Assembly: GCA_015059425.1 (NCBI GenBank)
Contig: SVAM01000001.1
Coordinates: 28,027 to 92,026 of the forward strand
DNA: 64,000 nt
Origin: Bacillota bacterium
Lineage (GTDB): Bacteria > Bacillota_I > Bacilli_A > RF39 > UBA660
Reading direction: 5' to 3'
Notes under the pieces: model-generated
The model's input: only the letters and a program-made list of their open reading frames with translations
Databases searched by the model: none
What the model was told of the DNA's origin: nothing
Program-made: the position numbers and the translations under genes
Shown: piece after piece, positions 1 through 30,253 of the stretch
Position numbering within the stretch: position 1 is the first letter of the stretch
Layout: every line of letters begins with the position of its first letter

Positions 1-1701
1 AAATTGATTTGGTGTATGTTCTGTCCTCTTGTGCTCAATAGTATCACACTTTTGGTTCTCCATATATAATATTTCATTTTCAAGAGGTCCACCTATATGT
101 TTTGCTCCTTTAGTATGCGATCTTTCTGTACCAAATAAATTCAAGAATATATCTAGTTTTACATTATATCTATCGCCATCCACTTTGGATACAATAATTT
201 CATCTACAAACTTTCTGATAAATTCTTCTATAGAGCCACCATCAATCTCCTCTTGAATAGATTTTGACATCTTATCTATATTGTCATTACTTTGTTTTAG
301 TATTTCAATCTGCTTCAATACTTCTTCTTTGCGGTTCTTAAGTCTTTGAAGATTTTCTTCGAAACTATCAAATTGACTTTTTAAAGCATCTCTTGTCAGT
401 TCTCCATTAAATACCATATCAAATGCAAGTGCTTTCTTGTCTTCAATGACTTTAATATCCTTATCTATCGCTGCTAAATCTTTATCATACTGATTAGTCT
501 TATCAATGTTGTTATACAATTCTAGCATATTCTCTACTATTGATGATTTGTTTGGAATTATGTTATTCATTATTTGCTTCAATATATTATAAAGATCTAT
601 CTCTGCAATAATAGGAGACTCACAAGCTTCAATACGATATTGTAAATACATGCCACAACTCCATGTAGGTCTATTCTTTCTTCTACTACCATGCGATCTT
701 TGAAAATTAGCATTACAATCCTTACAATAAATCTTAGAACTAAAAGGATATTTCAAACCGCCTGACCAATAGTTATTATTCTGATAACTCTTTGTCCTAG
801 TTGTTAATATTTCATTTGCCTTATCCCAAAGTTCTTCTGATACAATAGCTGGTATAATTTCTTCTTCAGTTTTGTAAATCTTTTGCTCTTCAATTGGAAG
901 TTTCTTTCTTCTTTTGGTTCTATAGTCCATTATTTCATGTTCATGACTTCTATAAAAACCTTTATATTTTGGATTCATTATCATACGCTTAAGACTATCT
1001 TTATCATACATTCTACCTTTCTTATTTAAATAACCCATTGCAGATAGTTTTTTTGATAATTTATGAAATCCATATTCTCCTGTAGCGTATAGTTCAAACA
1101 GCGTTCTAATGAATTTTGCTTCTTCTTCAACAATTACTAGCTTACATTTATCCTTCTTATAACCAGTAATATTACTAGACCCAAGAACATGACCTTTTTC
1201 CATAGCTTGCTTATGACCGAACTTAACCCTTGAAGAAAGCTTCTTAGATTCTTCTTGCGCTACACTAAATAAAGTATTTAAAATCATTTCAGAATTTGGA
1301 TCAAAAGTATTTAATGCTTGATTTTCAAAAAACAAACCCACACCATGTTCCTTAAGTTCTCTAATTGTATGAATACTATCTTCAAGGTCACGAGCAAACC
1401 TAGAAACTTCTTTTGTCACAATTAAATCAAACTTATTTAATTTAGCATCGCGTATCATACGCTTAAAGTCATCACGTTTGGTAATAACAACACCTGTAAT
1501 TCCTTCATCATAGTATCCTTCAACAAATGTCCAGTTTGAATTTGACTTAATATAATTTCTATAATAGTCTAATTGATTTTCTAATGAATTAATTTGAACA
1601 TCACTATCAGTTGATACTCTACAATAATAAGTAACTCGAAGAGGAAGATTACGAAGGTTTTCCCCACGAATTACTGCAGATACTATTTCATCATAGGACA
1701 T
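1..1701 (-). CDS. Large serine recombinase (integrase). Partial: the 3' end runs off the left window edge and at least 566 aa are visible.
   Basis: Minus-strand ATG at 1701 with an AGGAGG RBS. The N-terminus MSYDEIV...RVTYYCRVSTDSDVQ carries the resolvase-type catalytic Ser motif. A long recombinase domain follows, with a Cys-rich zinc ribbon (CKDCNANF...WSCG) and a C-terminal coiled coil. The ORF is absent from the ORF track because it has no stop inside the window. Confidence 0.8.
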   Translation of the reverse strand, partial: MSYDEIVSAVIRGENLRNLPLRVTYYCRVSTDSDVQINSLENQLDYYRNYIKSNSNWTFVEGYYDEGITGVVITKRDDFKRMIRDAKLNKFDLIVTKEVSRFARDLEDSIHTIRELKEHGVGLFFENQALNTFDPNSEMILNTLFSVAQEESKKLSSRVKFGHKQAMEKGHVLGSSNITGYKKDKCKLVIVEEEAKFIRTLFELYATGEYGFHKLSKKLSAMGYLNKKGRMYDKDSLKRMIMNPKYKGFYRSHEHEIMDYRTKRRKKLPIEEQKIYKTEEEIIPAIVSEELWDKANEILTTRTKSYQNNNYWSGGLKYPFSSKIYCKDCNANFQRSHGSRRKNRPTWSCGMYLQYRIEACESPIIAEIDLYNILKQIMNNIIPNKSSIVENMLELYNNIDKTNQYDKDLAAIDKDIKVIEDKKALAFDMVFNGELTRDALKSQFDSFEENLQRLKNRKEEVLKQIEILKQSNDNIDKMSKSIQEEIDGGSIEEFIRKFVDEIIVSKVDGDRYNVKLDIFLNLFGTERSHTKGAKHIGGPLENEILYMENQKCDTIEHKRTEHTPNQF

Positions 1702-1735
1702 AATCTTCCTCCTTTGCTACTTTAGTTTACATATA

Positions 1736-1879
1736 TTATGCTGCCCTTAATGCTTTAAGCATCTTAAGTAACTTTTCATTTGCCTTCGAAAAAGTATTCT
1801 CATCAATAATATTTCTTTTATAAAGGTTTGTATTAATAATAATTTGAATTTGTACTTCTGCTATCTTATTCATATCCAT
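1736..1879 (-). CDS. Small 47-aa ORF immediately upstream of the large serine recombinase. It could be a regulator or a directionality-factor candidate.
   Basis: The ORF begins ATG and translates as MDMNKIAEVQIQ...KMLKALRAA, with a weak GAGAAG RBS. Its stop lies just 5' of the recombinase RBS. Confidence 0.25.
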   Translation of the reverse strand: MDMNKIAEVQIQIIINTNLYKRNIIDENTFSKANEKLLKMLKALRAA

Positions 1880-2139
1880 AATAATCTTCTCACTTTCATA
1901 AACTACTTAAGTCTATGTGTGAAATAAATGAATAATTCATAAACAGCTTTAACATTAAATCACTTAAATACATCACTTTGTCAATAGACTTAAATACATT
2001 AAATAGTGAAATGGGTAAGTGAGACGTTCATATAAAGCCAAAAAAGGAGGTAAGCTAAATACAAAAGTAATGTAGCATGTTAACCACTTACCCAATATTC
2101 ACAGCGAGAGTACCAACCAAAACATATATAAGCACTAAT

Positions 2140-2348
2140 ACTATGGGCACTGCACCACTCGCTAGTATGTTATAAGAAATTGTTTGGACATTTTTCACTT
2201 TAATCGCAAAAAAGTAGAAAAAAGTGTTAAAAACTTATAAAAACAGCGAATTATCAAGCATTAATACATAAATATTCTCACTAAAAGACATACGTACATC
2301 CTTACTAGAAAATAGTGTGAAAATTCTCCCTAGTCTTACTTGGGAAGC
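2140..2348. repeat. Copy A of a bipartite non-coding module, 3' of resolvase remnant genes.
   Basis: A ~75-bp block (gcacca..gttataagaaattgtttggacatttttcactttaatcgcaaaaaagtagaaaaaa) is followed about 130 bp later by an imperfect palindrome, tccctagtCTtacttggga, at 2327-2345. Confidence 0.6.
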
Positions 2349-2399
2349 AAATTGACCCCCAAAAAAAGAAGCTACTAATTAAGTAACTTCTACTTCAAT

Positions 2400-2780
2400 T
2401 TACATCCACCCTTGCTCAAATCCAACTAATTCAGGATACTTATCAAAGTTGATGAAGAAATTCATTTTGTCCTTTAGTAAAAATATCGTATAAAACATAT
2501 TAACCTTTCGATTACAGATATATAGTTCAGTTTCATATCTACATAAAGTTTCTAAAATATTAATAACCTCTTGTATGCGAAATCCTAAGTCATTAAGTCG
2601 AAGAATATATAATTTACTATATTTAACTTTACTTAATACTTCTTTCAAATTACCATCTTTAGTACCATAATCGTAAAATATCTTTCTTTCACTGATATCA
2701 TAACTTCTAAGTGTGCTTATTGCATCATCACCAGCAATACCATTCTTAACAATTCTAAAGTATCCATAGCCATAATTCAT
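2400..2780 (-). pseudogene. Remnant of a small serine recombinase N-terminal catalytic domain. The catalytic Ser is replaced (GYFRIVKNG vs GYCRCSTNE) and the E-helix and HTH are missing.
   Basis: Residues ~1-95 align with the intact resolvase at 3414-4016 (KIFYDYGTKDG...LYILRLNDLGFRIQEVINILETLCRYETEL). The sequence then diverges. Confidence 0.5.
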
Positions 2781-2781
2781 T

Positions 2782-3036
2782 CTATATCAAATCCTTTCTT
2801 ACAATTAAATCCGGCTTTCTAGGACGACCTAACTTCTTACCATTTCTAACAGCAAGAGCTAATCCTATCTTTATCCTTTGTGATTTACTTTTTGATTCTA
2901 CTTCTCTAAGTTTAGCATTAAAGTTTTGTCTACACTTGGTTTCATAAGCAAAACCACCATTTCTAAAATCAGTATCAGCATTATCAATTACCTCTAATTT
3001 TTCTAACATATTCTTAATATTAATTTCTTTGAACAT
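2782..3036 (-). pseudogene. Fragment of a small serine recombinase. It covers only the E-helix and arm region and ends GKKLGRPRK, with no catalytic domain and no HTH.
   Basis: FRNGGFAYETKCRQNFNAKLREVESKSKSQRIKIGLALAVRNGKKLGRPRK aligns to residues ~100-150 of the resolvase at 3414-4016. The fragment sits upstream of the N-terminal remnant, so the order is scrambled. Confidence 0.5.
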
Positions 3037-3177
3037 ATCACTTCATCTCCTTCACAAATTATTCAAAGTTAAACTAAGCATCAATATACCACCCACATAA
3101 TATTCTTATACATGACTACTAACAACTTATAAAATCACATCCTTACTATCAACAAATGCAGACAGACACAATACAAA

Positions 3178-3361
3178 CAACGTTGCACCAACTGCTATTA
3201 CGTTATAAGAAATTGTTTGGACATTTTTCACTTTAATCGCAAAAAAGTAAAAAAAAAAACTTGTAAAACCGATGATTCTACAAGTAATTATTTGTAAAAA
3301 ACTAGTGATTTTCAATATTCAGAAAACTCTAAAAATTCGTCCCTAGTCCTACTTGGGAAGA
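3178..3361. repeat. Copy B of the bipartite non-coding module, 3' of the intact resolvase gene.
   Basis: It carries the same ~75-bp block (3178-3250) and the palindrome tccctagtCCtacttggga at 3340-3358. Confidence 0.6.
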
Positions 3362-3413
3362 AAAAAGAGCCCATTCAAAAGCTCTCCTCGCATGCTTAGA
3401 CAGTGAAATGCTA

Positions 3414-4016
3414 CTAAGCATTTTCTACTATATCTAGATACTTATAAATAGTTGGATACGATAATTGAGTAACTCTAGCAAAAGCCATTTTGTTTAGAGT
3501 TCCATTCTTATACTTAGGATAATACTGCATAAACACCTTTGGAATATCATCATAAGTTGACTTAGGACGTCCTAACTTCTTACCAGCCTTAACAGCTGTA
3601 GCTAATCCTAAATGGATTTGATGTATTTTCAGCTTTGCTTCCATCTCCCCAAAAACCGCGTTAATTTTTAGCATACCTTCAATCATAGGATCTAAACTAC
3701 CATTCCTACAATCTATATCAATACTTCCAACAATAAGCCTAAATTTCTTTGCAATAATCAAATCAATTATTTCACACAAAACCTTTGTATTCCTACACAA
3801 ACGAGTAATATCAGTAACTATTAAAGTATCACCCTCATTCATTTCTTCTAACAGTGCATCAAGTCCAGGTCTATGTTCCTTCCTACCAGAAATATACTCA
3901 TACCTTATATTAGATATATCTACACCTTTATCAATTAATGCATCAATCTGATACTTGACATCTTGTTTTGACTCGTTGGTGGAACAGCGGCAGTAACCCC
4001 ATACTTTGCTTTCCAT
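3414..4016 (-). CDS. Small serine recombinase of the resolvase/invertase family (catalytic domain plus C-terminal HTH).
   Basis: The N-terminus GYCRCSTNESKQDV has the catalytic Ser. The E-helix reads GMLKINAVFGEMEAKLKIHQ and the arm reads GKKLGRPKS. A C-terminal HTH follows. Confidence 0.8.
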   Translation of the reverse strand: MESKVWGYCRCSTNESKQDVKYQIDALIDKGVDISNIRYEYISGRKEHRPGLDALLEEMNEGDTLIVTDITRLCRNTKVLCEIIDLIIAKKFRLIVGSIDIDCRNGSLDPMIEGMLKINAVFGEMEAKLKIHQIHLGLATAVKAGKKLGRPKSTYDDIPKVFMQYYPKYKNGTLNKMAFARVTQLSYPTIYKYLDIVENA

Positions 4017-4250
4017 ATTAAATTACCTCTTTTCTAAAGTGTAAAAGAAAACATCTTTCACATTTCGTTTATATAAATCACTTAAATTCGTGGAAAAAGC
4101 AACGTATTTCGGATAAGTTTCTAATATAAAAGAAATCAAATGATTACGTTTATACTCAATATTCAGCCAAATAAAAAGAATAATAAGCTATAACACCTAT
4201 TATCCAATTCATACAATCACACCAGCTACAATGCAAGTTATACACCTATA

Positions 4251-4688
4251 TCATAAAGTACCAACAGGTATCCAACTAATAATGAAGTTGTTGTCATCAT
4301 CCTCATATTTTAACTTGGTTATACCAGTAGCATCAGCAGTAGTCTCTACTAAACACAACATCATAGGAATATCACTCTTAATCTTATATCCATCATTCGT
4401 GTATTTTATTACTAGAGAGTTAATACCATTCCTATATTGTAACCTATCATAAATATTATCACCAAGCATCTGTTGTAAAAACAACTTGTCAACTTCAATT
4501 GAACCTACACTAAAAAGGAAAGCATGATTAAAGATAGGATCATCTATTACATCAACTACACTTGTTAAATTAATATCTAATTTTTTAAGTTTACTACAGG
4601 GAATAATAAAACTCTCACCATTGTTAAACTTAACATCAATACTCTTTATATCTTTACCATTTATATTATAAAACTTTGACTTGTCCAT
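4251..4688 (-). CDS. Hypothetical protein (145 aa).
   Basis: Single long ORF lying downstream of the peptidase gene on the same strand. Confidence 0.45.
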   Translation of the reverse strand: MDKSKFYNINGKDIKSIDVKFNNGESFIIPCSKLKKLDINLTSVVDVIDDPIFNHAFLFSVGSIEVDKLFLQQMLGDNIYDRLQYRNGINSLVIKYTNDGYKIKSDIPMMLCLVETTADATGITKLKYEDDDNNFIISWIPVGTL

Positions 4689-4767
4689 AATGACTCCTTC
4701 AACTACTTAAATATATAAACTATTGCACACAAAAAAAGATAGCAATGCTATCTCTATATTATAATAA

Positions 4768-6105
4768 TTATTCACTTATTAATTCAATTGCATTTCCACC
4801 TGTATTGGCACTTCCAGGTAAAAAGTTTTCATCCGTATACTTAATCCAGACAGTACCATCACCATTAGAATCAGGAAAATATTTAACACGTGCCCATGTA
4901 TTTCCCCATGAATTTAACACAAGCCAAGATTCTTTGGAATCATCCCATCCAATAATTAACATTCTATGTCCAGGTTGAATATCATCACGCATCTTAATAA
5001 ATGCTGAACCATATTTCTTAACAAGCTCTTTAGTATACAAATTTAGTAATTCTTTTTCATATTCTTCAGCGTTAGGTATATCGTCAAATATATTATATTC
5101 ACTTTTATCAGCATGCACTAAACTCAATATTTTAGAGTACTTATCAAGCAGATTAGTTAATCCATAAGAACGTTGCATAGCTATGGTTTCATAATCTTCA
5201 CCCTTTTCAGATTCATATGATAAATAATAATATTTTTTCTTACCAGGAATTAAATGATCAGAACCAAGAAGTATAGTATTATCTTCTTCATTAATAATTC
5301 CATCAATATTAGCATCTAATCCATTAATCTTCTTCTCAAAATCTATCAAAAATTGATAATCTAGACCTTTCAGCTGTGCAGATATTTCTAATGCCTTAGT
5401 ACTTGACCATATCTCACAAGTATCAGAACTTCCTTGATCTCCAGCTATAACTTTTACTTTATCTCTAATATCAAATTTAGACTCTATATCTTGTTTCTTC
5501 GTTTCAAATGGTTCAATAGCCGCTTCTATCTTTTTCTCTAAACAAACCTTTTCATCTAACATTAAACTTGTTACTGCATTTTGATGTATATCTTCCTCTT
5601 CGTATTTACCTATACAGGTATAATCATATTCTTCACCAAGAATATCATGTCTATATTTATCACTATCAATACATTTATAACCATCATCGTTACGAACAGC
5701 ATAATTACCACCATCACAAGTAATTGGTTCTTCACTTCCACAATAATAGAGATCACCATCAGAACCACAAATTGAAATATTCAATTGCTCAAGGCGTTTA
5801 GACTCATATGAAAATATAGAAACTCCTGAGATAGTAATTACAACAATCGAAGCAAGTATAAATATCTTCATGTAGCTTCTAGTTGTATAATTCTTTTTAA
5901 ATATTAATACAGAACCTACAATACCAATAACGAACAGGATCATCATAAAATTAGTATCCTGTGAAACAAAACCATTTTCATCAAAATAATCAATTATTAA
6001 TAATAATCCTCCAAGAGCTATAGCAAGCAAAAAACTTTGACACAATGATTTTCGTAGTGGATGTTTCTTCTTACTTTCAATCTTATTTTTCTTCACAACA
6101 TACAA
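4768..6105 (-). CDS. Membrane-anchored papain-like (C1-type) cysteine peptidase with a Cys-rich extracytoplasmic region.
   Basis: Two N-terminal TM helices are followed by a Cys-rich stretch. The C-terminus shows Cys...His...Asn signatures: QGSSDTCEIWSS, HRMLIIGWDD and LNSWGNTWA. Confidence 0.55.
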   Translation of the reverse strand: MYVVKKNKIESKKKHPLRKSLCQSFLLAIALGGLLLIIDYFDENGFVSQDTNFMMILFVIGIVGSVLIFKKNYTTRSYMKIFILASIVVITISGVSIFSYESKRLEQLNISICGSDGDLYYCGSEEPITCDGGNYAVRNDDGYKCIDSDKYRHDILGEEYDYTCIGKYEEEDIHQNAVTSLMLDEKVCLEKKIEAAIEPFETKKQDIESKFDIRDKVKVIAGDQGSSDTCEIWSSTKALEISAQLKGLDYQFLIDFEKKINGLDANIDGIINEEDNTILLGSDHLIPGKKKYYYLSYESEKGEDYETIAMQRSYGLTNLLDKYSKILSLVHADKSEYNIFDDIPNAEEYEKELLNLYTKELVKKYGSAFIKMRDDIQPGHRMLIIGWDDSKESWLVLNSWGNTWARVKYFPDSNGDGTVWIKYTDENFLPGSANTGGNAIELISE

Positions 6106-6115
6106 CTCCTTAAAT

Positions 6116-6400
6116 TTAACAACCCCAAACTAACTTTTCAACAAACATTGGGATAAACTTCTCAATAAATAAAACAGCAAGTATAATTTCAGCAACAAGT
6201 AACAAAATAATAATGTTATATCCAAAACCAGCAGATGTAACAGTTAACGCAAGATCAAACGGAATTTGTGTTGCCTCACATATGGAATCAGCTATCATCT
6301 TGTTATTATGAATAAACAATGCACTAACACAAGCAAGAAACAATGACTCCATAACAATTAAGAACTTACTATCTTCAAACCTTCCAGTAAACATAAACAC
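6116..6400 (-). CDS. Small integral membrane protein (94 aa).
   Basis: Hydrophobic ORF lying 10 nt upstream of the peptidase gene in the same operon. Confidence 0.4.
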   Translation of the reverse strand: MFMFTGRFEDSKFLIVMESLFLACVSALFIHNNKMIADSICEATQIPFDLALTVTSAGFGYNIIILLLVAEIILAVLFIEKFIPMFVEKLVWGC

Positions 6401-6517
6401 TCAACTCCTTCCTGACAACTTCTAACATATCTATTATACCACAAAGGTAACATTTGAAGATACCTACATTTAAAAACATTCATGAGAAAATAATATTATC
6501 TAAGGTGGAGGTGTGTT

Positions 6518-6823
6518 ATGGGAAGAAACAATCATTCTTATACAGAAGAACAATTGATTGAATATAGTGAAATTAAAAAGAACATATGCCAAAACATGCG
6601 CATCGCTAGAAAGCTTGCTCAAATGAAAGTAAAAGATGCAGCACCTGCACTTGGCATAGAGCCAGAATCACTAAAAAGGATTGAAGCTCCTAGTTCAAAA
6701 GTAGGTCCATCTTTAGAAGTACTGTGTGGTGCAATAGAATTATATGAAAAAGATCCTAATTTTTACTGGCTAGACTGGGAAGAGAATGAAAAACTATTAG
6801 ATACAGAAAAGGAAGAGAATTAA
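6518..6823 (+). CDS. XRE-family helix-turn-helix transcriptional regulator.
   Basis: HTH segment ICQNMRIARKLAQMKVKDAAPALGIEPESLKRIE. The gene is divergent from the peptidase operon and has GGAGG as its RBS. Confidence 0.6.
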   Translation: MGRNNHSYTEEQLIEYSEIKKNICQNMRIARKLAQMKVKDAAPALGIEPESLKRIEAPSSKVGPSLEVLCGAIELYEKDPNFYWLDWEENEKLLDTEKEEN

Positions 6824-7047
6824 CTCTTCCTTTTAAAGTGTGCTATAAAGTTTGTACGTGAATCATCAGTTGGAGTTAACGATTCAAAAAAGTAATCAGT
6901 ACAATTAACCAGATAATATATTATTTCAAACTCTCTAGCATTGTCTTCTTGACTCTTAAATGTTATCTCAATAACATCAGGTAGTTCCTTAGATAAAGTT
7001 TCCTTTACCTCTTCGAATGTAGGAAACTCAAGAATAAGCTTATTCAA
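6820..7047 (-). CDS. Hypothetical small protein (75 aa).
   Basis: ORF only. Confidence 0.3.
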   Translation of the reverse strand: MNKLILEFPTFEEVKETLSKELPDVIEITFKSQEDNAREFEIIYYLVNCTDYFFESLTPTDDSRTNFIAHFKRKS

Positions 7048-7108
7048 TTACATCACCATCCGCTTGTATAATAACGTGCTTTTAATAATTATACAACTTA
7101 ATGGTTCA

Positions 7109-7828
7109 CTATACAAAGTACTTAAGGTACTTCTTCTTTGAGTTGTAAGTCTTAAACATCTTGTTGTAATCAGCAATTCTAGATTCAACATATCTTGTCT
7201 TGTAAGCTTCAATATTTCTTTTCCTATTTCTAATAGGATCCTCTGCTTTAGCAAAATAATCTAGTCTTGCACCAATATCATCAAATAGTTCTAAAACATT
7301 ACCTCTACCTCTTTGACAGAAAGCTACATCAGACATAAATTGAACCATCTTACGACTCTCATCTAAATTATACTCCTTAACTTCCTTAATTGGAATATCT
7401 AGAGCTGTCAATTCTTCTTCTATAGAAGGAACAAACTTGGCATTACGAATAAAATTTGAAATGATTAACTTGTAAACTAACTCCTTTAATTTCTCATCAG
7501 ATGAATCCTCAGGTGTATAACTCAAAAGTTCTTTTAGTTCCTGCTCACTATTTCTAACAATCTCAGTGACACACATTTGAAATGGTGGAACATTAAAAAA
7601 GTTATTCTTCATACATCTAAGAAACTTGTTCATATTAGAAATGAATTGTTCAGCAGAAATCATACCGGCAGCAGGTTCAATATCAAAAGAAAAGGTTCTA
7701 TCATCAATTCTCTCCACCTCGTTCATTAAACTCCTAGTTGATAGTAAAGTAAATAAAACATTATCATACAAGCGACTCTCCTGCAGCAGAATGTACCTCA
7801 ACATCTCTGCTTTAGTCTCGGTTTTCAA
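7109..7828 (-). CDS. Hypothetical protein (239 aa).
   Basis: Long ORF with a coherent acidic/basic composition. Confidence 0.45.
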   Translation of the reverse strand: MKTETKAEMLRYILLQESRLYDNVLFTLLSTRSLMNEVERIDDRTFSFDIEPAAGMISAEQFISNMNKFLRCMKNNFFNVPPFQMCVTEIVRNSEQELKELLSYTPEDSSDEKLKELVYKLIISNFIRNAKFVPSIEEELTALDIPIKEVKEYNLDESRKMVQFMSDVAFCQRGRGNVLELFDDIGARLDYFAKAEDPIRNRKRNIEAYKTRYVESRIADYNKMFKTYNSKKKYLKYFV

Positions 7829-8167
7829 AATATCACCATCCTCATACTTTGTTATAACGTAATAATCAGGGTTTGGGAGCTACATTTGTGAAAAAAACAT
7901 AAAATCTATGGTATAATGGAATAGACAGATAAATAGTAATTTGTTAATTTGATTAGAAAAAATTAGATGCAAAAATTGAGAAAAAAAGACAAATTAAAAC
8001 CGGAATTTTAAAATAAAAAATGTTATAATATAAGTGTTATTATATAACTAGAAAACCAATATCAGTATTGCCATTAATGGCAGTTGATGGTAATAAAAAA
8101 ACTATCATTGTTTTCTATATTATAGGTTAATCTATCTGCCTTAGATTGAATCGTAAGGAGGTGCACA

Positions 8168-8416
8168 ATGAAAAGAGTAAAAGCTGGTTGTGTTCTTCAA
8201 ACATTAGTATTTTTGCAAAAAGAAGAATTAAATCTAAGTAAGGAAGAAGCACTTAAATTGAATCGTGAAGAAGTAGAACATTATAAAGAATCTTTAGAAA
8301 GAGCAAAAACTAGATATCAAATTCTTGATGTAAAAGAACAGGAAGATGCTTCTATAATTGTTCATGTAAGAAAACATCTTAATTCAACTACTGATGTTGA
8401 AGAATATTTTAATTAA
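8168..8416 (+). CDS. Hypothetical protein (82 aa).
   Basis: AGGAGG RBS 6 nt upstream. A bidirectional terminator hairpin follows at 8420-8450. Confidence 0.45.
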   Translation: MKRVKAGCVLQTLVFLQKEELNLSKEEALKLNREEVEHYKESLERAKTRYQILDVKEQEDASIIVHVRKHLNSTTDVEEYFN

Positions 8417-8454
8417 AAAAAAGTCACAATTTTGTGGCTTTTTAAAATGCAAAA

Positions 8455-8655
8455 TTATTTAAGATTTTTTCTTTTATTCAAGTCCAATCCTTCTAGTTGT
8501 AATTTTATTGCTATAGAATTGATTTCATCATAACTAAAATTCATTTTCTTAAGAGTTTTTCTATCTAAATTCCATAATTTTTCAATAGAATTTATGTTAT
8601 TCTTTTCAAGTTTTTTAAATATTTTATCATTTAGTTCTAATTTAGCTAATTCCAT
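8455..8655 (-). CDS. Small protein resembling the RNA polymerase alpha C-terminal (helix-hairpin-helix) domain.
   Basis: LELNDKIFKKLEKNNINSIEKLWNLDRKTLKKMNFSYDEINSIAIKLQLEGLDL resembles the alpha-CTD HhH. Its start is 2 nt after the CarD-like stop, so the two are in one operon. Confidence 0.4.
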   Translation of the reverse strand: MELAKLELNDKIFKKLEKNNINSIEKLWNLDRKTLKKMNFSYDEINSIAIKLQLEGLDLNKRKNLK

Positions 8656-8656
8656 A

Positions 8657-9142
8657 TTACTTACTTACTTTTTCTGTAATATATTTTTTGACTTCTTCAA
8701 CTGATTTATTCAATGCAACAGAAAGTTCATTGTATAAATATTTTTCTGCAAGTTTGAAAAAAGTATTATCCTTTTCACTAATTTTTTTCTTATTATTAAT
8801 TCTGTCCTCATTTCTTAGATATGTGGTTTTTATTATTTTTATTAAGTTTTCGTGTCCACCAGCATTGAGTAATTCTTTATACTTCATTTCAATATTTTTA
8901 TCATTAATATTGTCTAATGGCTGAATTTTTGAAATTTTATTGATAAGTTTTTCAGCATCTTCTGAAGATATAACATCTCTTAAAAATCCCATTCTATTTT
9001 CTATAGGAATATCAATTATTAATGTATCATCATCTATTGGAGTCATTACATAATATGTGTTCCCCATCAGCCTATTTTCTTTAACATCTTTAATTTTGCA
9101 TACATCATGTTTGTAAACAACATAGTCATCTTTCTTATACAT
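8657..9142 (-). CDS. CarD/CdnL-family RNA polymerase-binding transcription factor.
   Basis: N-terminal KDDYVVYKHDVCKI...YYV...IPIEN is a Tudor-like RNAP-interaction region. The C-terminal helical region KYKELLNAGG...LRNEDR...ISEKDNTFFKLAEKYLYNELSVAL is also present. Size is 161 aa. Confidence 0.65.
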   Translation of the reverse strand: MYKKDDYVVYKHDVCKIKDVKENRLMGNTYYVMTPIDDDTLIIDIPIENRMGFLRDVISSEDAEKLINKISKIQPLDNINDKNIEMKYKELLNAGGHENLIKIIKTTYLRNEDRINNKKKISEKDNTFFKLAEKYLYNELSVALNKSVEEVKKYITEKVSK

Positions 9143-9257
9143 AAAATGTTCCTCCTTTTCTTTGTGTGTTACAATATAATTTTATCAAAATTTTAAATTT
9201 TTCGTAAGTTTTTAAAATCTAATAAATTGAAAAAATGTACACAAAATGAAGTTTTTA

Positions 9258-9373
9258 TGGTATAATTTTGACTTGTCAGACCCAGCTTAATGCGTATAAA
9301 GAGACATCTTTTGCGCATTATTTTTTTGCCCTAAATTAAGCTAAAGGGTTGATTATAAAATAAGGAGGAGAAA
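9258..9373 (+). promoter_or_regulatory. Promoter (TGGTATAAT) and 5' leader holding a terminator-like hairpin and an alternative pairing, upstream of the MATE fusion gene. It is an attenuator or riboswitch candidate.
   Basis: The extended -10 tggtataat is at 9258-9266. A hairpin aatgcgtataaagagacatcttttgcgcatt is followed by a T7 run. The upstream agcttaat can pair with the downstream attaagct next to the RBS. Confidence 0.35.
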
Positions 9374-11353
9374 ATGGAAAATCAAGAAAACAACAGATAT
9401 CTTGGAGAAGAAAAGATATCAAAAATTTTATTCAAATTTGCTATTCCATGTATATTATCACTATTAATTAGTTCTTTATATAATATAGTTGACCAAATAT
9501 TCATTGGACATAGTGAATTAGGTTATTTAGGAAATGCAGCAACATCAGTAGTATTTCCTATAACAATTATTTCAGTTGCGTTTGCATGGTGCTTTGGTGA
9601 TGGTTCAGCAGCTTTCTTATCACTAGCACAAGGAAGAAAAGATACAAAAGATGTTCATAAAGGAATTGGAAATAGTATCTTAATTAACTTCATTATAAGC
9701 ATTATATTTGTAATATTAGGCTTTATATTTATGGAACCACTATTAAGAATGTTTGGTGCTTCAGATGTTACATTAGGGATAGCTAAAGATTATTTTAAAA
9801 TAATTCTACTATTTATTCCTGTGTACATGATGGCTAATGTAATGAATCCAATTATTAGAGCAGATGGTTCACCATTAGGAGCTATGATTGCTACTTTAGT
9901 TGGAGCAATTACAAATATTATTTTAGACCCAATATTTATATTTGTGTTTGATATGGGAATTGAAGGAGCTGCTTGGGCTACAATTATAGGACAAGTATTA
10001 TCATTAATAATTTCTATAATTTATTTTGTTAAATATACAAAGACTTTTAAACTTTCAAAAGATAGTTTTAAAGTAAATATTGGTATATTTAGTAACATTA
10101 TTAAACTGGGAGTTAGTACATTTATAACACAAATGTCTATAGTAATTATTTCATTAGTTTGTAATATTATGTTGGCAAAATATGGTGCGATGTCAAAATA
10201 TGGTGCAGATATTCCTATTGCAACTATGGGTATTTGTATGAAAGTATTTACTATTGTTATTAATATAGTAGTTGGTATCATATTAGGAGCACAACCAATT
10301 TTAGGATATAACTTTGGAGCGAAGAAAATTGATAGAGTTAAACAAACTTATAAGATAGTATTAATTTCTACTATAATAGTTGGTATTTTGTCAACATTAG
10401 TATTTGAATTATGTCCTGAAGTTGTTATTAAAATGTTTGGTACTGAATCAGATTTATATATGGAATTTGCAGTTATAACATTTAGAATATTCTTAATGCT
10501 AATTACATTTACTTGTACAATTAAAATGACATCAATATTTTTTCAAGCAGTTGGAGATCCAGTTAAAGCAGCAATCACATCTTTATTAAGAGATATTGTT
10601 TGTTTTGTTCCTATGGTAATTATTTTACCTAAATTCTTCGGAGTAAAAGGAGCATTATATGCTGCACCTGTAGCAGATGTTGTGGGTATTTTAGTATCTT
10701 CAGTATTGGTAGTTGTATTCTTTAAGAAAATTAGTTCAACTAAGAAAGTAAAAGTTGAAAAAGCAAAATTACTTAATTCTAAAGAAGGAATTATTATTGC
10801 TATTTCAAGAAGTCATGGTAGTCAAGGTAAATATATTGGTAAATTAATATCTGAACAATTAAAGATACCTTATTACTATAAAGAAATGACAGCTTTAGCT
10901 GCACAAGAAGCTGGATTAGATAGAGAGTTTATTGATAAATTAAATTCATCAAATAATATTTTAAGGGATCTATATTTAACTACAGAACCAGTTAAATATG
11001 CTATTGAAGCTCAAGAAAAAGCAATTAATATGATTGCTGATAAAGGTTCTTGCGTAATAGTTGGTAGAGCTGCTGACTATGTATTAAGAGATAGAAAAAA
11101 TGTCATTAAAGTTTTCATTACCGCTGATGAGGAAACAAGAATTAAAAATGTTATGAATATGTATAAAGATAAAAAATCAGATGCAATAAAAAATATTAAA
11201 AAATCTGATAAAAATAGATCTAGTTATTATAAAGCTATTTCTGGTAAAGAATGGGGCAAAGCTGAAAACTATGATTTATGTATAGACTCTTCCATCGGTG
11301 TTGAAGAAACTGCAAAAGTAATAATTAATTACCTAAATACTTTAAATAAATAA
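9374..11353 (+). CDS. MATE-family efflux transporter fused to a C-terminal cytidylate-kinase-like (AAA-type NMP kinase) domain.
   Basis: About 450 aa with 12 TM helices and typical MATE composition. The C-terminus GIIIAISRSHGSQGKYIGKLISEQLKIPYY...VIVGRAADYVLRD is a CMP-kinase-like fold. Confidence 0.8.
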   Translation: MENQENNRYLGEEKISKILFKFAIPCILSLLISSLYNIVDQIFIGHSELGYLGNAATSVVFPITIISVAFAWCFGDGSAAFLSLAQGRKDTKDVHKGIGNSILINFIISIIFVILGFIFMEPLLRMFGASDVTLGIAKDYFKIILLFIPVYMMANVMNPIIRADGSPLGAMIATLVGAITNIILDPIFIFVFDMGIEGAAWATIIGQVLSLIISIIYFVKYTKTFKLSKDSFKVNIGIFSNIIKLGVSTFITQMSIVIISLVCNIMLAKYGAMSKYGADIPIATMGICMKVFTIVINIVVGIILGAQPILGYNFGAKKIDRVKQTYKIVLISTIIVGILSTLVFELCPEVVIKMFGTESDLYMEFAVITFRIFLMLITFTCTIKMTSIFFQAVGDPVKAAITSLLRDIVCFVPMVIILPKFFGVKGALYAAPVADVVGILVSSVLVVVFFKKISSTKKVKVEKAKLLNSKEGIIIAISRSHGSQGKYIGKLISEQLKIPYYYKEMTALAAQEAGLDREFIDKLNSSNNILRDLYLTTEPVKYAIEAQEKAINMIADKGSCVIVGRAADYVLRDRKNVIKVFITADEETRIKNVMNMYKDKKSDAIKNIKKSDKNRSSYYKAISGKEWGKAENYDLCIDSSIGVEETAKVIINYLNTLNK

Positions 11354-11371
11354 AAACAAATTACAATTTAA

Positions 11372-11397
11372 CGAGCAGATGTAACAATCTGCTTTTC
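11372..11397 (+). terminator. Rho-independent terminator after the MATE fusion gene.
   Basis: Hairpin gagcagatgtaacaatctgcttt followed by tcttat. Confidence 0.5.
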
Positions 11398-11439
11398 TTA
11401 TGGTCTAAATCTTAACCAAGTAAAAAGAGCAATCACTCA

Positions 11440-11925
11440 TTAATCGCTCTCTCTATCACTAAACTTCAAAATCAATTCATCTATAACAGCATCTTGACCA
11501 CTTTTTTCTATCATCTCTTGTAGTGTTCCATCTGCTCTTAAACGTTCTATTTCCTCTAATATAGGACCTAGACGACAATCTGGATGCTTAATATTTCTAG
11601 GATCAAACAATAATGCCACCATCTGATTAAAAAACAAACGATTATGGCTCACTAGTTTCGGATTGATATTACATTTGATAATGCAATCTTGGTCAAAATC
11701 AGCAGTTGAATCATCAGCAGAATACTCATTAATCAACTCTTGTACCATTTCCATTGCTGATTTCTTCAAAACATAAGGTTTCTTTCTTCCATAGGTTAAT
11801 ACATTTGCATCATCATACAAGGTAATCCAGTTCTTATCGTATCTTTCAAGCTTAACCAACCAAGTTCTATCTTTCATAGCACAACTCCTCTCAAATAACC
11901 ACCTAATTCGGCATTCTTTGCCCAT
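11440..11925 (-). CDS. Hypothetical protein (161 aa) in a locally higher-GC segment.
   Basis: Long ORF. Its codon usage is visibly richer in G/C than the surrounding genes. Confidence 0.4.
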   Translation of the reverse strand: MGKECRIRWLFERSCAMKDRTWLVKLERYDKNWITLYDDANVLTYGRKKPYVLKKSAMEMVQELINEYSADDSTADFDQDCIIKCNINPKLVSHNRLFFNQMVALLFDPRNIKHPDCRLGPILEEIERLRADGTLQEMIEKSGQDAVIDELILKFSDRESD

Positions 11926-12110
11926 TTGGCGAATCTTTCGAACAAAGTAATAGAAACACCCACTAACAAAGAAAAGAAACGAAAATCAAGACGTTTTGAA
12001 ATCGTAATATTTCTCTCAAAATAGAAGGACATTTCTACAATAGGATGTTCTATTAAAATATATAAAAAAGCTGTAAAAACCCTAAAAAAGGTAGAAAAAC
12101 CATAAAGAAA

Positions 12111-12437
12111 TCATTCTTCTTCGAACCAATCTATATATACAGGTCTAGTATAGCGCTTAATATTTGCTAATAAAGCTACTTTAAAATAAGCGTATAAACA
12201 TTCAATATCATTTCCATCCTCATCTTTTAGATGATTTCTCTTTATACAGGATATTGTATAGCTAGTGCAATATAGCACAACACGATACTGAAAATGCTGA
12301 AGTAGCTCACTAAAGAATTCATTCCATAGACTCAACTCGAATTCGGAAGGTTCTATTATCAGCTTTCTCCTAATTAGTTCTGAAACAAACAACATGGGTG
12401 TATTTTCATATTTCTTGGAACTTGTAACTTCTTTCAT
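12111..12437 (-). CDS. Hypothetical protein (108 aa).
   Basis: ORF only. Confidence 0.4.
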   Translation of the reverse strand: MKEVTSSKKYENTPMLFVSELIRRKLIIEPSEFELSLWNEFFSELLQHFQYRVVLYCTSYTISCIKRNHLKDEDGNDIECLYAYFKVALLANIKRYTRPVYIDWFEEE

Positions 12438-12772
12438 TTTCCTATCACCTTTGATTTTGTATTTAACCTTAAAAGTAAAACATAATCAATAGGAAATAGA
12501 ACAGAATATAAATATTATTACTTACTCCTTCACATTGTGAAGACAGCAGAAAAGGCAACCCACACTTCGTTGCACTAAAAACCCATATAAAAGTATAAAT
12601 AATACTAGGTATTGTTCTTGAAAATAAGATTAAGTAAAACCATTAACATGCTCTCCTGCAAGCTACGCCGGATCCACCGAATCACGCAACGCTTCATGCA
12701 ACGATCCACAGAACCAGCTTTACCTGCAGCAGTTGCCGATAAAAACAAAACCAGTTTCACTCCTTTGCATGC

Positions 12773-13162
12773 TTAATCTAACGAAGTTAATAAATAATCA
12801 TGCATAATAGAAACAAACTCACCATCACCGATCAAAAACTTACGATATGATTTCTTGTTAAATATAATCTCTAGGAATTCACGCTCGTAAGGCCAACCTT
12901 TAACCGTCAGGTCATCACGCTTAACATTACTTACATCCCAGAACTTGGCTATAAATCCATATATATCCTGAACTTCATATCCAACTATCTTGATATAATG
13001 GGCATACTCGTTGATGTAATATCGAATTTTCTTCATAGAAGTTGATTTAAGCTTACCAATTAAAGGTCCAGTTCCATCAATATAGACACGTCCATCTTCG
13101 TAAGCAACCAGCTTCATTCCATTAAATGGATTCTTAAGTTTAACAATCCAATGTGCTTTCAT
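12773..13162 (-). CDS. Hypothetical protein (129 aa).
   Basis: ORF only. Confidence 0.4.
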   Translation of the reverse strand: MKAHWIVKLKNPFNGMKLVAYEDGRVYIDGTGPLIGKLKSTSMKKIRYYINEYAHYIKIVGYEVQDIYGFIAKFWDVSNVKRDDLTVKGWPYEREFLEIIFNKKSYRKFLIGDGEFVSIMHDYLLTSLD

Positions 13163-13403
13163 ACATTCTCAAATCCTCTCTAAATTCAAAATATTTAGCA
13201 ACTTTAAACCGGTTTGAGAGACTTTAAAGCAAAACTAGTATAAATAACCATAGTCACTTCAAAATCTCCGCTTGACCAGCTTAATCAAATAAAATAATCA
13301 TCTTATATCTGCATATACATCTTCTAGTGAAATTGTACGTCGATACTATAATTGGGATTCCTACCATCTAAATCACTAATATCATTATCTAAAATTCCTA
13401 TTC

Positions 13404-13601
13404 CTATAGAATTGTATCTATAAGCGAATCCCTACCATCTAAATCTCTCTTTGCTTTAAAACTTTCTTTTGAAATAATAGCCTTATGATTGTTAGTATTA
13501 TTATTAATATCTTTATTATTGTTATTGCGTTTTCCGAGTAGGCAATCTCGTACAAAGTTGTAAAAACGTCGCTGTAAATCCGATGATTCATCAACCATCA
13601 T
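13404..13601 (-). CDS. Hypothetical small protein (65 aa). Doubtful.
   Basis: Asn-rich low-complexity ORF. Confidence 0.2.
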   Translation of the reverse strand: MMVDESSDLQRRFYNFVRDCLLGKRNNNNKDINNNTNNHKAIISKESFKAKRDLDGRDSLIDTIL

Positions 13602-13715
13602 AGTAATATAAAATCAAATTGACAATTCTTAATGGATTATCTTAAAAGTCGTGAAGGTGAAGAACTACTCAGACAATCCATCAACTGTCACATTACTATA
13701 CGAAATCTAAATAAC

Positions 13716-13929
13716 ATTTTTCACTAAACTATCAAAAAAAGAAAAAAACATCATAATAAACTCGAAAGGTAATCTAACAATTGCCATAGTACTATACGAA
13801 ATCTAGTCACCAATTTACTCAAAAACATACAAAAAGTAATATTAATTATTATAAAAACTAAAACATTTCTGAGCACATTCAACCATCATAATTCACTTCA
13901 AAAACTTCCCTAGTGTTACTTGGGATATA
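13716..13929. repeat. Copy C of the bipartite non-coding module, immediately upstream of the methyltransferase promoter.
   Basis: The block acatttttcactaaactatcaaaaaaagaaaaaaac is at 13714-13750 and the palindrome tccctagtGTtacttggga is at 13907-13925. An extended -10 (gtggtataat) for the MTase follows at ~14020. Confidence 0.5.
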
Positions 13930-14057
13930 TTTTAACTAATCAAAAAGACAGATATATAGATTGGAATATTTAAACTAATAACATTGATTATTGTAGTTAC
14001 ATTCTAAAATTGGTTAAAAAGTGGTATAATATTTACTGATTAAATGGAGGTGTTATA

Positions 14058-16289
14058 ATGGGAAGAATGAAAAGTGTTGGAACAATCACAAAAAACTTAA
14101 AAAAAGCTTTGACAGGATATAACAAAGGTCAGGATATAACTAGTTATGAAAAATACATATACTTAATCTTATTCTACCGCTTTCTTTCTGAAAGCATAAT
14201 CAAACATATTCAAACTAACTTCAATGTAAATTATATTGAACTAAATAACAATGAGGCAGAAGCATATAAATCTCAAGTGCAAAGTGATATAGATTTCTTC
14301 ATATACCCAGAAGACTTATTCCAAAATATTGTAGCAAAAGAATTGAATAGTAGTCGTTTAGATTCAACATTAAACTCAATATTCAAGAATATCAAACAGT
14401 CTTCTAAATATGAGATATGTGAAATCTTTAGAAACATAGATACTGAAGCAGAAGGTATTGGAACTAGTCAAAATATAAGGAGTAATATATATTCAACCAT
14501 ATTAAAAGCTATATCAGATATTGACTATGACATTAACAAATCTGATTATGACTTATTTGGTAATATCTTTGAATTCTTACTAAACAATAAAGATACAAAC
14601 AATACCATGAGTCTTAAAAACGGCATATTCTATACTCAACCATCAGTAGTAAAACTATTAAAAAAGATTTCAGACCAATATATTACTGATCCTAATAACA
14701 TCTACGATCCTACTTGTGGAAGTGGTTCATTATTAACCGAATATGCAAGATTTAACAATACTATACCTTTCTATGGCAAAGAATTAAATGCAATACCTGC
14801 TATGTTATGTAGAATGAATATGATAATACACAATGTAAAAGACTTTAAAATTACTCAATGTGATACATTGCTAACTTATGATAAAGAAGAAAAAGAAAAG
14901 TACGATTTGATATTTGCTAACCCACCATTTGGAATACCTTGGAATAAATCAACTTTGCGAGAAGACGATGAAAGATTCAATGACAAACCTCTTCCTAATA
15001 AAGAGTTAGCTGATTGGGCATTCATATACCATATCATATACACGCTAAATAAAAATGGATTAGCGTTGGCAATTGATACACCAAACATGTTATCCAGAAC
15101 AAATCCTGAAGAAACTGCAGTAAAAAAACATTTAGTTGATAGCAATCAAATAGATACAATAATACTACTACCTAGAAAGATGTTCCTAAGAACTGATACC
15201 GGTACATGTCTGTTTCTGATTCGAAAAAACAAAACAGACAACAATATATTATTTGTTGATGCAGGTAACATATGTACTAAGAATAGTAATCAAGTAACTT
15301 TTAGTGATGAAAATATAGATAACATCATAGAACTTATATTAGGTAGAAAGAGCATAGACAACCTATCGTACTTAGCAACTCCAGAAGAAATAGCAAATCA
15401 CAAATATTCATTAAATATTTGTGACTACATTAATTATAAAAAAGAACACACATTTACAACTATTGAGGATGTATGCTTATCTGATTTCATTTACGAGAAT
15501 GAAGAAGAAGCTAATTACAAATCACGTTTAAAGTATAATACACAAATTAAAAGGGTTAACGAATGTATAGTCAATACTTTAGAACAACTAAAACAAAGCA
15601 ATCAAATTAAAATGATTCCACTAGCTAATGTTGCCGATATAACTATTGGTTCTAAAATAAAAGACATGAAAATAGATACCAACGATAATTTCCCATATCG
15701 CTACATTACAACAAAGGAAATACAAAATGGTGCTGTTATAGAAGACAGTTCGCTAATGTATATCAAAGAAAACAAAAGTATTCATACAGAAAGAATAAGA
15801 AAAGAAGACTTAGATGAGTTCATTAATAAAGGAAAGTTGAAAAAGGATGATGTATTATTCGCTATTTACTCAAAAGGTACCAAGGCAGCTATAGTACAAA
15901 AACCTAACTTTATATTCTCGGATAGTGTATTTCGATTAAGACCATTTAAAGATATAGAAGACGAAGTATCACCTACATATCTAAGATATGTATTAGAATC
16001 AGATTACTTTGTAGAAAAAATCAATAAACATATCAAAAGATACTATAATAATACTTCTTCTCCTACTAACTATATTACACTCGAAGACTTTAGGCAATTA
16101 ACGATTCCGGTTATTCCTCTAGGTGCTCAAGCAGATATTTGTCTATTGCTAACACTAATGGAAGCGAAATATACAGAACTTGAATTAGCTCTTAAAAGAG
16201 AACTAGAAGTATACCAATATAGGTATCACACAAATACAAAGAAACTATTTAACGATGTAGAAACAGTTGAAGAAGATGAAGAAAACTAA
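14058..16289 (+). CDS. Type I-like N6-adenine DNA methyltransferase (HsdM-type, gamma class) fused to one HsdS-type target-recognition domain. No HsdR is present in the window.
   Basis: The HsdM N-domain (YEKYIYLILFYRFLSE) and DLFGNIFEFLL...GIFYTQPSVVKLL are present. Motif I is YDPTCGSGSLL and motif IV is FANPPFG. The C-terminal ~240 aa has the HsdS TRD signature LTIPVIPLGAQADICLLLTL plus a coiled-coil tail. Confidence 0.85.
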   Translation: MGRMKSVGTITKNLKKALTGYNKGQDITSYEKYIYLILFYRFLSESIIKHIQTNFNVNYIELNNNEAEAYKSQVQSDIDFFIYPEDLFQNIVAKELNSSRLDSTLNSIFKNIKQSSKYEICEIFRNIDTEAEGIGTSQNIRSNIYSTILKAISDIDYDINKSDYDLFGNIFEFLLNNKDTNNTMSLKNGIFYTQPSVVKLLKKISDQYITDPNNIYDPTCGSGSLLTEYARFNNTIPFYGKELNAIPAMLCRMNMIIHNVKDFKITQCDTLLTYDKEEKEKYDLIFANPPFGIPWNKSTLREDDERFNDKPLPNKELADWAFIYHIIYTLNKNGLALAIDTPNMLSRTNPEETAVKKHLVDSNQIDTIILLPRKMFLRTDTGTCLFLIRKNKTDNNILFVDAGNICTKNSNQVTFSDENIDNIIELILGRKSIDNLSYLATPEEIANHKYSLNICDYINYKKEHTFTTIEDVCLSDFIYENEEEANYKSRLKYNTQIKRVNECIVNTLEQLKQSNQIKMIPLANVADITIGSKIKDMKIDTNDNFPYRYITTKEIQNGAVIEDSSLMYIKENKSIHTERIRKEDLDEFINKGKLKKDDVLFAIYSKGTKAAIVQKPNFIFSDSVFRLRPFKDIEDEVSPTYLRYVLESDYFVEKINKHIKRYYNNTSSPTNYITLEDFRQLTIPVIPLGAQADICLLLTLMEAKYTELELALKRELEVYQYRYHTNTKKLFNDVETVEEDEEN

Positions 16290-16297
16290 AGGAAAGA

Positions 16298-16328
16298 GAA
16301 TGCTCTCTTTCCTTTGTTTTATATGGTC
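16298..16328. terminator. Bidirectional rho-independent terminator at the MTase 3' end and the truncated PBP 3' end.
   Basis: Perfect 9-bp stem ggaaagaga-atgc-tctctttcc followed by tttgtttt. Confidence 0.6.
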
Positions 16329-29985: not shown

Positions 29986-30069
29986 TCATACCACCCTTCC
30001 ATTTTAAAAATTTAAATGTAATCAAATAATAACATCCAAACTATTGTTTGTCAACATTAAACATAAAAA

Positions 30070-30101
30070 AGATTAGAGTGTGCTCTCTAATCTACTTTTT
30101 T
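30070..30101 (-). terminator. Intrinsic terminator between the repeat array and toxN (a ToxIN-type attenuating terminator).
   Basis: Hairpin agattagag-tgtgct-ctctaatct flanked by an A run and a T run. Confidence 0.5.
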
Positions 30102-30253
30102 CAGTTCCTGTTTCGGCCGGAATCGCCACCTTTTTATTAAGTCCCAATTAATATGGTAGGGAATCACCGCTTTTAATTCAGTTCCTGTTTCGGCCGGAAT
30201 CGCCACCTTTTTATTAAGTCCCTCTTATGGTAGGGAATCACCGCTTTTTTATA
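30100..30253 (-). ncRNA. toxI: ToxI-like antitoxin RNA candidate. It consists of 2 x 77-nt tandem repeats, equivalent to about 4 x ~38-nt units in two alternating variants.
   Basis: ttcagttcctgtttcggccggaatcgccacctttttattaagtccc occurs at 30100 and at 30177. The sub-units GGAATCGCCACCTTTTTATTAAG and GGAATCACCGCTTTTAATTCAG sit directly upstream of toxN and are separated from it by the terminator. Confidence 0.65.

Follow-up and report, generated by a model that had tools for sequence, protein, structure and literature searches.

We studied a bipartite non-coding module that occurs in three copies (A, B and C) in 64,000 nucleotides of a Bacillota bacterium contig, SVAM01000001.1 (this whole stretch is called the window below). 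All three copies lie inside one mobile element of ~16.4 kb, at window positions 1 to ~16356, integrated by a large serine recombinase (LSR). Every copy has a 19-bp dyad and a 73-nt block. The explanation that we prefer, and to which we give about an even chance of being right, is that the module combines an upstream, helically phased operator with a promoter and would subject the LSR operon, along with two more operons, to shared control. A preliminary description of this DNA had interpreted the modules as recombination sites, with an operator as the alternative; it was borne out in part, as the recombination sites found no support and the operator is now the favoured reading.

In the operator-promoter explanation, the block would be a promoter-like unit made of phased T-tracts, a GTGAAA hexamer and, after an 18-nt spacer, a second hexamer (TATAAC or TATAGT). 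Copy A, the canonical one, would drive a small open reading frame (ORF) and the LSR gene, copy B would head a relic resolvase gene and ORF126, and copy C would head the ORF65-ORF161 operon. The dyad, 120-163 bp upstream and on the same face of the helix, would be the site for a dimeric sequence-specific DNA-binding protein acting on the promoter at a distance, via looping or by contact across bent AT-rich DNA, so that expression of the recombinase and of two other operons would fall under one control. The anatomy of the module, its conservation pattern, the distribution and spacing of its copies and the location of the recombinases' own sites elsewhere in the element are described below. From the sequence comparisons we infer promoter activity, protein binding and co-regulation.

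Copies of the module in the window

The 19-mer TCCCTAGTnnTACTTGGGA occurs exactly three times in the window, always on the positive strand, at 2327-2345 (dyad A, central CT), 3340-3358 (dyad B, central CC) and 13907-13925 (dyad C, central GT). No match with up to two mismatches was found in 100 dinucleotide-preserving shuffles. The arm 8-mers TCCCTAGT and ACTTGGGA (the right arm) are found nowhere else in the 64 kb, and the near-variant TCCCAAGT has a single occurrence elsewhere, at 20371.

One copy of the 73-nt block accompanies each 19-mer (block A, 2151-2223; block B, 3184-3256; block C, 13677-13749), and all the modules are in direct orientation. Block B is 92% identical to block A (67 of 73 positions), including a 48-nt perfect run, and block C is 60% identical to block A. 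A partial fourth block, in tandem with block C at 13771-13835, is 72% identical to it and carries a second TATAGT. Counted from where ACATTTTTCACT starts, the 19-mer is 139, 119 and 193 bp away in A, B and C, close to the 118-194 bp given in the preliminary description, whose three-copy bipartite module in direct orientation is confirmed by the exact 19-mer positions, the shuffles and the block repeat. The repeats are real and far beyond chance. The perfect run shared by blocks A and B forms a 48-nt direct repeat, at 2176-2223 and 3209-3256, with 1,033 bp between equivalent positions.

Conservation and phasing of the dyad and the block

The genes adjoining the modules are all encoded by the minus strand, which places each module upstream of an operon in the coding direction; the sense strand below is the minus strand. 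In seven copies, including some from the related elements described below, the sense-strand consensus of the dyad was TCCC(A/C)AGT-A-nn-(A/G)CTAGGGA, with the centres AAG, AGG, AAC, ACT and ACC. Only two changes were found in the arms, one at arm position 5 and the other at the innermost position, and position 5 differs between both arms in every copy. No compensatory arm changes were seen across the seven dyads, which suggests sequence-specific recognition. Copies A and B have identical dyad arms (16 of 16 positions), and the arms are also identical in C, whereas the spacers between dyad and block are unalignable among the three copies. That arms and block were kept and the spacers were not argues for separate selection on each of the two parts.

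From its centre, the dyad is separated from the downstream hexamer by 162-163 bp in the A-type copies, 140-142 bp in B and copies of the type found in the related locus L113, and 120 and 216 bp in C, that is, in steps of 21 bp. Phasing at a 10.5-bp period gave R = 0.91 with p ~0.006, and p was 0.02 at 10.4 bp, in a post hoc test on five distances only. Conserved arms, a free centre and a fixed helical phase to the promoter are the properties looked for in an operator, and the dyad has all three. Taken together, these features suggest that double-stranded DNA is recognised by its sequence at the dyad, on the helix face of the block.

Blocks A and B carry GTGAAA-18-TATAAC on the minus strand, and block C carries GTGAAA-18-TATAGT (score 9/12). 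The block is placed as a promoter would be, upstream of a co-oriented gene and in a conserved orthologous place, and it appears to behave as a promoter region specific to this family. Other classes of site were compared by eye and rejected. For a sigma-54 promoter, TTGC is present with no GG 11-12 nt upstream, and CATAC of the sporulation sigma promoters is not conserved in B. The symmetry of the dyad is reversed relative to the C-box of restriction-modification controller proteins, AGTnnnACT and not ACTnnnAGT. A lox-like site was suggested by a common 9-mer, TTCGTATAG, which has no inverted partner.

Genes around the modules

On the minus strand the order in modules A and B is upstream gene, its intrinsic terminator, dyad, AT-rich spacer, T-tracts and block, and operon. 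Module A is located 3' of ORF126 (2400-2780, no family match) and 5' of sORF47 (1736-1879, 47 codons) and the LSR gene (1-1701; Resolvase, Recombinase and Zn_ribbon_recom domains), the 3' end of which lies beyond the window. Dyad A (TCCCAAGT-AAG-ACTAGGGA in the sense strand) is 15 nt past the T-run of the ORF126 intrinsic terminator (2367-2391, called by the terminator scan). Dyad B (TCCCAAGT-AGG-ACTAGGGA) comes directly past a putative resolvase terminator at 3361-3390, a hairpin and T-run seen by eye and unlisted by the scan, and block B is upstream of ORF84 (2782-3036) and ORF126. The gene before module B encodes a 200-aa small serine recombinase of the resolvase/invertase type (3414-4016), detected by Pfam; the earlier statement that both A and B lie directly 3' of a resolvase gene is right for B, and A instead follows ORF126, which has no Pfam resolvase match. 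ORF84 is a relic of a second small resolvase. It aligns to residues 95-152 of the 200-aa protein (41% identity, E 3e-11) and spans part of the catalytic domain and the E-helix, without the catalytic serine region and without the DNA-binding domain.

Module C heads leftward genes, with no upstream gene and no terminator before it. Dyad C (TCCCAAGT-AAC-ACTAGGGA) is in the region between the operon ORF65-ORF129-ORF108-ORF161, whose first gene ORF65 (13404-13601) follows block C, and the divergent gene of a 743-aa N6 DNA methyltransferase (14058-16289, positive strand). Pfam and PHROG searches left most ORFs of the element without a match and without a DNA-binding assignment.

Related elements and distribution of the module

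A scan of GTDB found the 19-mer in ten loci, four of which were homologous to the element: L001, L005, and L003 and L008, from 'uncultured Bacilli' metagenome-assembled genomes (MAGs). A metagenome scan gave 93 loci, with only L047 and L084 related, and more distant elements were gathered from relatives of the resolvase protein and their contigs. Related MAGs have 1-2 copies, all within the element. Megablast of window positions 1-17000 and a distant blastn search of module A (2100-2400) against phage and plasmid collections returned nothing, the 19-mer matches in IMG/VR were unrelated coding sequence, and a literature search for the motif produced chance matches only. A genome-wide repeat of the REP or MITE kind, which the preliminary description had named as a finding that would overturn it, is contradicted by the confinement of the copies to the element at 1-2 per MAG and by their absence from the 47 kb of host DNA in the window, where the block profile also had no copy. 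Terminal repeats were likewise not seen at the modules.

In the related elements L113-116, L125 and L131, with resolvases 81-83% identical, the order terminator, dyad, spacer, block, small ORF and LSR gene is kept, and the module sits between the resolvase gene, or a trailing ORF107, and the small ORF and LSR gene. The TATAAC-like hexamer of these elements, as in L113 and L125, stands ~45 nt ahead of the start codon of the small ORF and its ribosome-binding site. A block followed by the small ORF and LSR gene was seen in the window and in L001, L003, L113, L117, L125 and L131. In each related element the block profile had a single strong match, invariably ahead of the LSR operon; the extra copies were B and C in the window and C in L008. 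A shorter motif, a T-tract followed by ATTTCGTATAAC, stands ahead of other genes of the family in L120, L126, L129 and L131.

The small ORFs at the position of sORF47 in the relatives have a weak likeness to it by eye, and tblastn matched only L001, L005, L047, L084 and L117-L119. ORF126 resembles ORF110 of L003 and ORF107 of L131 by eye, with no match in tblastn.

The related elements are mosaic. Between the window and L001, identity is 97-98% across the LSR gene with module A and across the resolvase gene. Their divergence starts at the outer edge of dyad A, where L001 has an ORF110-like ORF; ORF84 and module B are missing from it. In L003, dyad A and spacer A are retained, and the sequence switches in the T-run by the block to a diverged block, small ORF and LSR (35% identity). 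We read these homology breaks as homologous exchange within conserved control regions, but no stronger argument for recombination sites is left than these breaks.

The host element and the sites of its recombinases

The element has a G+C content of ~0.24-0.33 (mostly 0.28-0.33 over 1-17 kb); beyond it the values are mostly 0.16-0.27, with a few segments reaching 0.32. At its right end (16316-16356) the attachment arm CTGTATGGTAGGTACGTG is joined to the codons ..EPGSTFK of a penicillin-binding-protein (PBP) gene. The N-terminal part of this interrupted gene, 300 residues long (16327-17229, minus strand), ends in ..YEPGSTFK followed by six element codons and a stop. The left junction, ~85-105 bp to the left of the window start, was seen in the metagenome contig L084 (97.6% identity across the LSR region), which beyond the junction resumes with ..GTFKIITMSTAIEE.. 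of the same transpeptidase. The PBP is split at the codons of its catalytic SxxK motif (..EPGSTFK|IITMSTAIEE), both junctions bear inverted arms ATGGTAGG(A/T)ACG, and the predicted attB contains ..GAACCGGGAAGTACATTTAAAATTATTACTATG... In L117-119 a related LSR gene is directly followed by the C-terminal half of a PBP gene ('Transpeptidase, PASTA'). Because the element is inserted in the SxxK codons of the PBP gene and junctions are seen at both ends, the predicted LSR attachment sites are the element ends. The splitting of a PBP gene by the element is a more notable feature than the module, a repeated promoter/operator module in a mobile element being ordinary.

The small resolvase has a candidate site of its own. 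Just upstream of its gene, at 4040-4154 on the minus strand, lies an array of dyads at 4125-4154 (12-6-12), at 4040-4073 (12-12-12) and, weaker, at 4084-4109. The first, TATAAACGTAAT-6-ATTTCGTTTATA, and the second, ATATAAACGAAA-12-TTTCTTTTATAT, have arms that are each complementary at 11 of 12 positions. About 170 bp upstream of the resolvase gene are strongly conserved in 9/9 aligned lineages, down to 68% protein identity. The array, with its 12-bp-arm dyads upstream of the resolvase gene and conserved along with it, is res-like: it is laid out as a res site would be, and where resolvases usually have theirs. The nearest solved relatives of the 200-aa protein by sequence are the Gin invertase and the Tn3 and gamma-delta resolvases, and its C-terminal DNA-binding domain is nearly invariant across the nine lineages.

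Our analysis also separates three kinds of site in one element, namely the LSR attachment junctions, the res-like array and the proposed regulatory dyad, which are easily confused when only the sequence is read.

Points against an operator and promoter

Several observations weigh against the operator-promoter explanation. The -35-like hexamer matches poorly and has not been kept in L117, L125 and L003, and the -10-like hexamer is degenerate (AACAAC) in L003, L125 and L131. A promoter scan gave 9 hits near A and B against 15.1 in shuffled sequence, and 12 near C against 7.7 (sd 2.9); it listed no block promoter for A or B, and nearer promoter-like sites exist for both copies. To the post hoc nature of the phasing test must be added that in L117-119 the right arm of the dyad is decayed, with block and LSR operon still in place. 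When the loci were compared, none of the ORFs of the window accompanied the dyad consistently, and no binding protein was identified in this way. All the relatives belong to a narrow lineage, and the evolutionary depth of the comparison is small.

The operator was also raised in the preliminary description, with two binders named for it, an XRE regulator and the resolvases. Both are unlikely: neither the control region of the XRE gene itself nor any other place in the window has half-sites, and the resolvase half-site motif TATAAACGnAAT is absent from the modules. We regard as improbable a more specific version, in which the dyad would be the target of a regulator encoded by the element that, from the phased position 120-163 bp upstream, jointly switches the LSR and small-ORF operon (and with it excision) and the two others, as the master switch for gene-splitting elements of a new family in gut Bacilli. 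Still lower is the probability that the dyad marks exchange points of operon-sized cassettes by a mechanism not tied to either recombinase. If the operator-promoter explanation is true, the module would be the control point for expression of the LSR whose element interrupts the PBP at SxxK, and regulation through the dyad would decide when the element is excised and the PBP gene restored.

Alternative explanations

A role of the dyads, or of the modules as a whole, as crossover or accessory sites for the small resolvase or for the LSR, with excision between direct copies, has a few arguments on its side and is in our judgement very unlikely. In several lineages the canonical module has a serine recombinase gene on either side, the dyad arms are symmetric about a variable centre, the level of homology shifts at module edges (at the outer edge of dyad A relative to L001, and in the T-run by block A relative to L003), and the helical phasing would also fit a synaptic complex. 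Against this, the LSR junctions are at the element ends, and the modules have neither the position at an element-target junction nor the inverted arms found there, which are unrelated to them in sequence. The resolvase has the res-like array in all nine lineages, and the half-site motif of that array is the one missing from the modules. The 19-mer is intact near four of the nine resolvase lineages and absent (L108-112, L120, L123, L126-130) or decayed (L117-119) near the other five, despite the nearly invariant C-terminal domain. Subsites of small resolvases such as those of Tn3 and gamma-delta res measure 25-34 bp. The dyad, with an 8-3-8 geometry, is 19 bp long, and its symmetry does not extend into the flanks. 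It has none of the ~12-bp half-sites, array of 2-3 subsites with a common half-site motif over ~90-130 bp, constant company of a recombinase or shared central dinucleotide of a res or crossover site; each module has one dyad, with no further symmetric sites and no symmetry inside the block. The odd centre, and the difference between the centres of the copies (CT, CC and GT), make the dyad unfit for a crossover with a 2-bp stagger. The preliminary description had envisaged deletion of 11.6 kb between directly repeated copies, and no dyad-to-dyad hybrid or deletion junction appeared in any related locus of the GTDB and metagenome scans.

The remaining alternatives leave recombination by these enzymes aside. 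The one with some, if small, probability is that the copies have no function as a set, the control region of the LSR operon having been copied to B and C by recombination, and serve as homology patches for exchange of segments. Most relatives have one module, B being confined to this window and C shared with L008 alone; B adjoins the truncated resolvase relic, homology breaks at module edges, and the 48-nt perfect run of A and B could support a RecA-mediated deletion of 1,033 bp, with loss of module B, ORF84 and ORF126. Recent passive duplication would not be expected to leave unalignable spacers between identical arms and a conserved block, nor perfect arms in C beside a block of 60% identity, retained in L008, nor phasing kept in all the copies. 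We find it rather improbable that the dyad works as a hairpin in sense-strand RNA, be it as a weak second terminator or insulator, or as a site where transcripts reading through into the next operon are processed or bound. Its position just past the upstream terminator in A, B and the relatives' copies, the 4-6 T within 2-4 nt after it in five of seven copies, a predicted free energy of -6.5 to -8.6 kcal/mol and an L113 variant (A to G in the right arm) that retains a U-G pair on the sense strand only are all in line with such a hairpin. Its stability, however, does not exceed that of shuffles (z = -1.1 to -1.7), L125 and L131 have an interrupted T-run, no co-oriented gene lies upstream of copy C for it to terminate, and a canonical terminator already precedes the dyad in A, B and the A-type relatives; the scan did not call the dyad as a terminator. 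The arms are conserved in sequence with zero compensatory pair changes, position 5 is unpaired in every copy (A-A or C-A), and the helical phasing with the block would be left unexplained. Against Rfam 15 the window had no match that reached the gathering score, and positions 1600-3500 had none even with E values of up to 1 allowed. Sense-strand folds of the whole modules gave no common structure, and only B exceeded the shuffles, owing to one spacer hairpin. We would be much surprised if the dyad formed a DNA hairpin or were associated with a nick, such as an origin for transfer or rolling-circle replication of the excised element. In some relatives the interval from the resolvase gene to the LSR gene holds Rep-like (REP_ORF2-G2P) or DnaB_C-like genes, and spacer A contains CTTGATA, which we take to resemble the nick sequence of the pC194 type. 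Yet the relatives with Rep-like or helicase genes are those without the dyad, Pfam and PHROG searches found no Rep or relaxase in the element of the window, three origins per element would be unusual, and the pC194-type nick site was rejected, as CTTGATA is not conserved in B, C, L113 and L125.

Comparison with known systems

The operator-promoter explanation has parallels in other systems. The O_B sites of KorB in IncP plasmids are promoter-distal palindromic operators of global regulators of mobile elements. Like them, the dyad is a short palindrome present at several control regions of one element, ~100-200 bp upstream of promoters, implying action at a distance. Unlike them, it has three copies instead of ~12, an unrelated sequence and the status of a putative binding site, and this element has no ParB/KorB-type protein, a ParB-like gene being found only in L008, by the methyltransferase gene. 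Looping operators of helix-turn-helix repressors include lac O3-O1, gal OE-OI and ara O2-I1, and operators of the lambda/434 type measure 14-19 bp. The 8-3-8 dyad resembles these in having half-site centres about one helical turn apart, conserved arms, a free centre and a spacing to the promoter that is in phase. It differs in that each promoter here has one dyad with no second operator visible at the promoter, and the XRE-type gene of the element has no such site beside it.

With the res sites of Tn3/gamma-delta and of the Sin/beta type the module shares its position near a resolvase gene, the dyad symmetry and the directly repeated copies. Those sites, however, consist of 2-3 subsites of 25-34 bp each, with 12-bp half-sites, upstream of the resolvase gene, a description that fits 4040-4154 and not the dyad.

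Gene-intervening LSR elements are known from skin in sigK, SPbeta in spsM and gin in gerE (PMC5595907, PMC4191935, PMC5499854). The present element also splits a coding sequence after LSR integration, and by analogy the small ORF beside its LSR gene could be a recombination directionality factor. It differs in that the PBP is cut at SxxK, in an uncultured low-GC gut Bacilli host, with no link to sporulation shown.

Other features of the window and of related loci

In L008 (CALWAL010000007.1) an XRE-type gene (157 aa) and the ParB-like gene (290 aa, with a GHRR motif seen by eye) adjoin the methyltransferase gene at 3836-5145. Both are absent from the window, where the element ends just past the methyltransferase gene.

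About 20 metagenome loci, including L024, L029, L031, L053, L083, L086 and L098, carry a REP-like hairpin family, (C)GTTCCCAAG(T/C)nnn(A/G)CTTGGGAAC(G). It occurs in high-GC environmental bacteria, often 2-3 times per contig, and has an arm core in common with the 19-mer; an Rfam search at the motif gave no match. These GTTCCCAAG..CTTGGGAAC loci were rejected as relatives of the module and form an unrelated family.

The cargo of the element includes a 659-aa ORF (9374-11353) in which a membrane domain of the MATE/polysaccharide-synthesis type is fused to one that resembles cytidylate kinases (Cytidylate_kin2, E 1e-44); L003 and L047 lack this segment. At 8455-9142 a 161-aa protein with weak matches, below the Pfam cut-off, to the CarD/TRCF RNA-polymerase-interaction domain is encoded next to a 66-aa ORF, and together they may modulate host transcription.

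Outside the element, a type III toxin-antitoxin locus was found at 29467-30250 on the minus strand, with the gene of a 172-aa toxin of the ToxN family (Pfam ToxN_toxin, E 6e-46). Its two tandem 51-nt repeats (30100-30227) are 96% identical, with a spacing of 77 nt, and had no Rfam match for their RNA; a terminator-like hairpin at ~30070-30098 separates them from the toxin gene. Finally, four copies of a 44-nt repeat at 40660-41141, 73-77% identical to the reference copy and spaced by 84-252 nt, probably lie within coding sequence.

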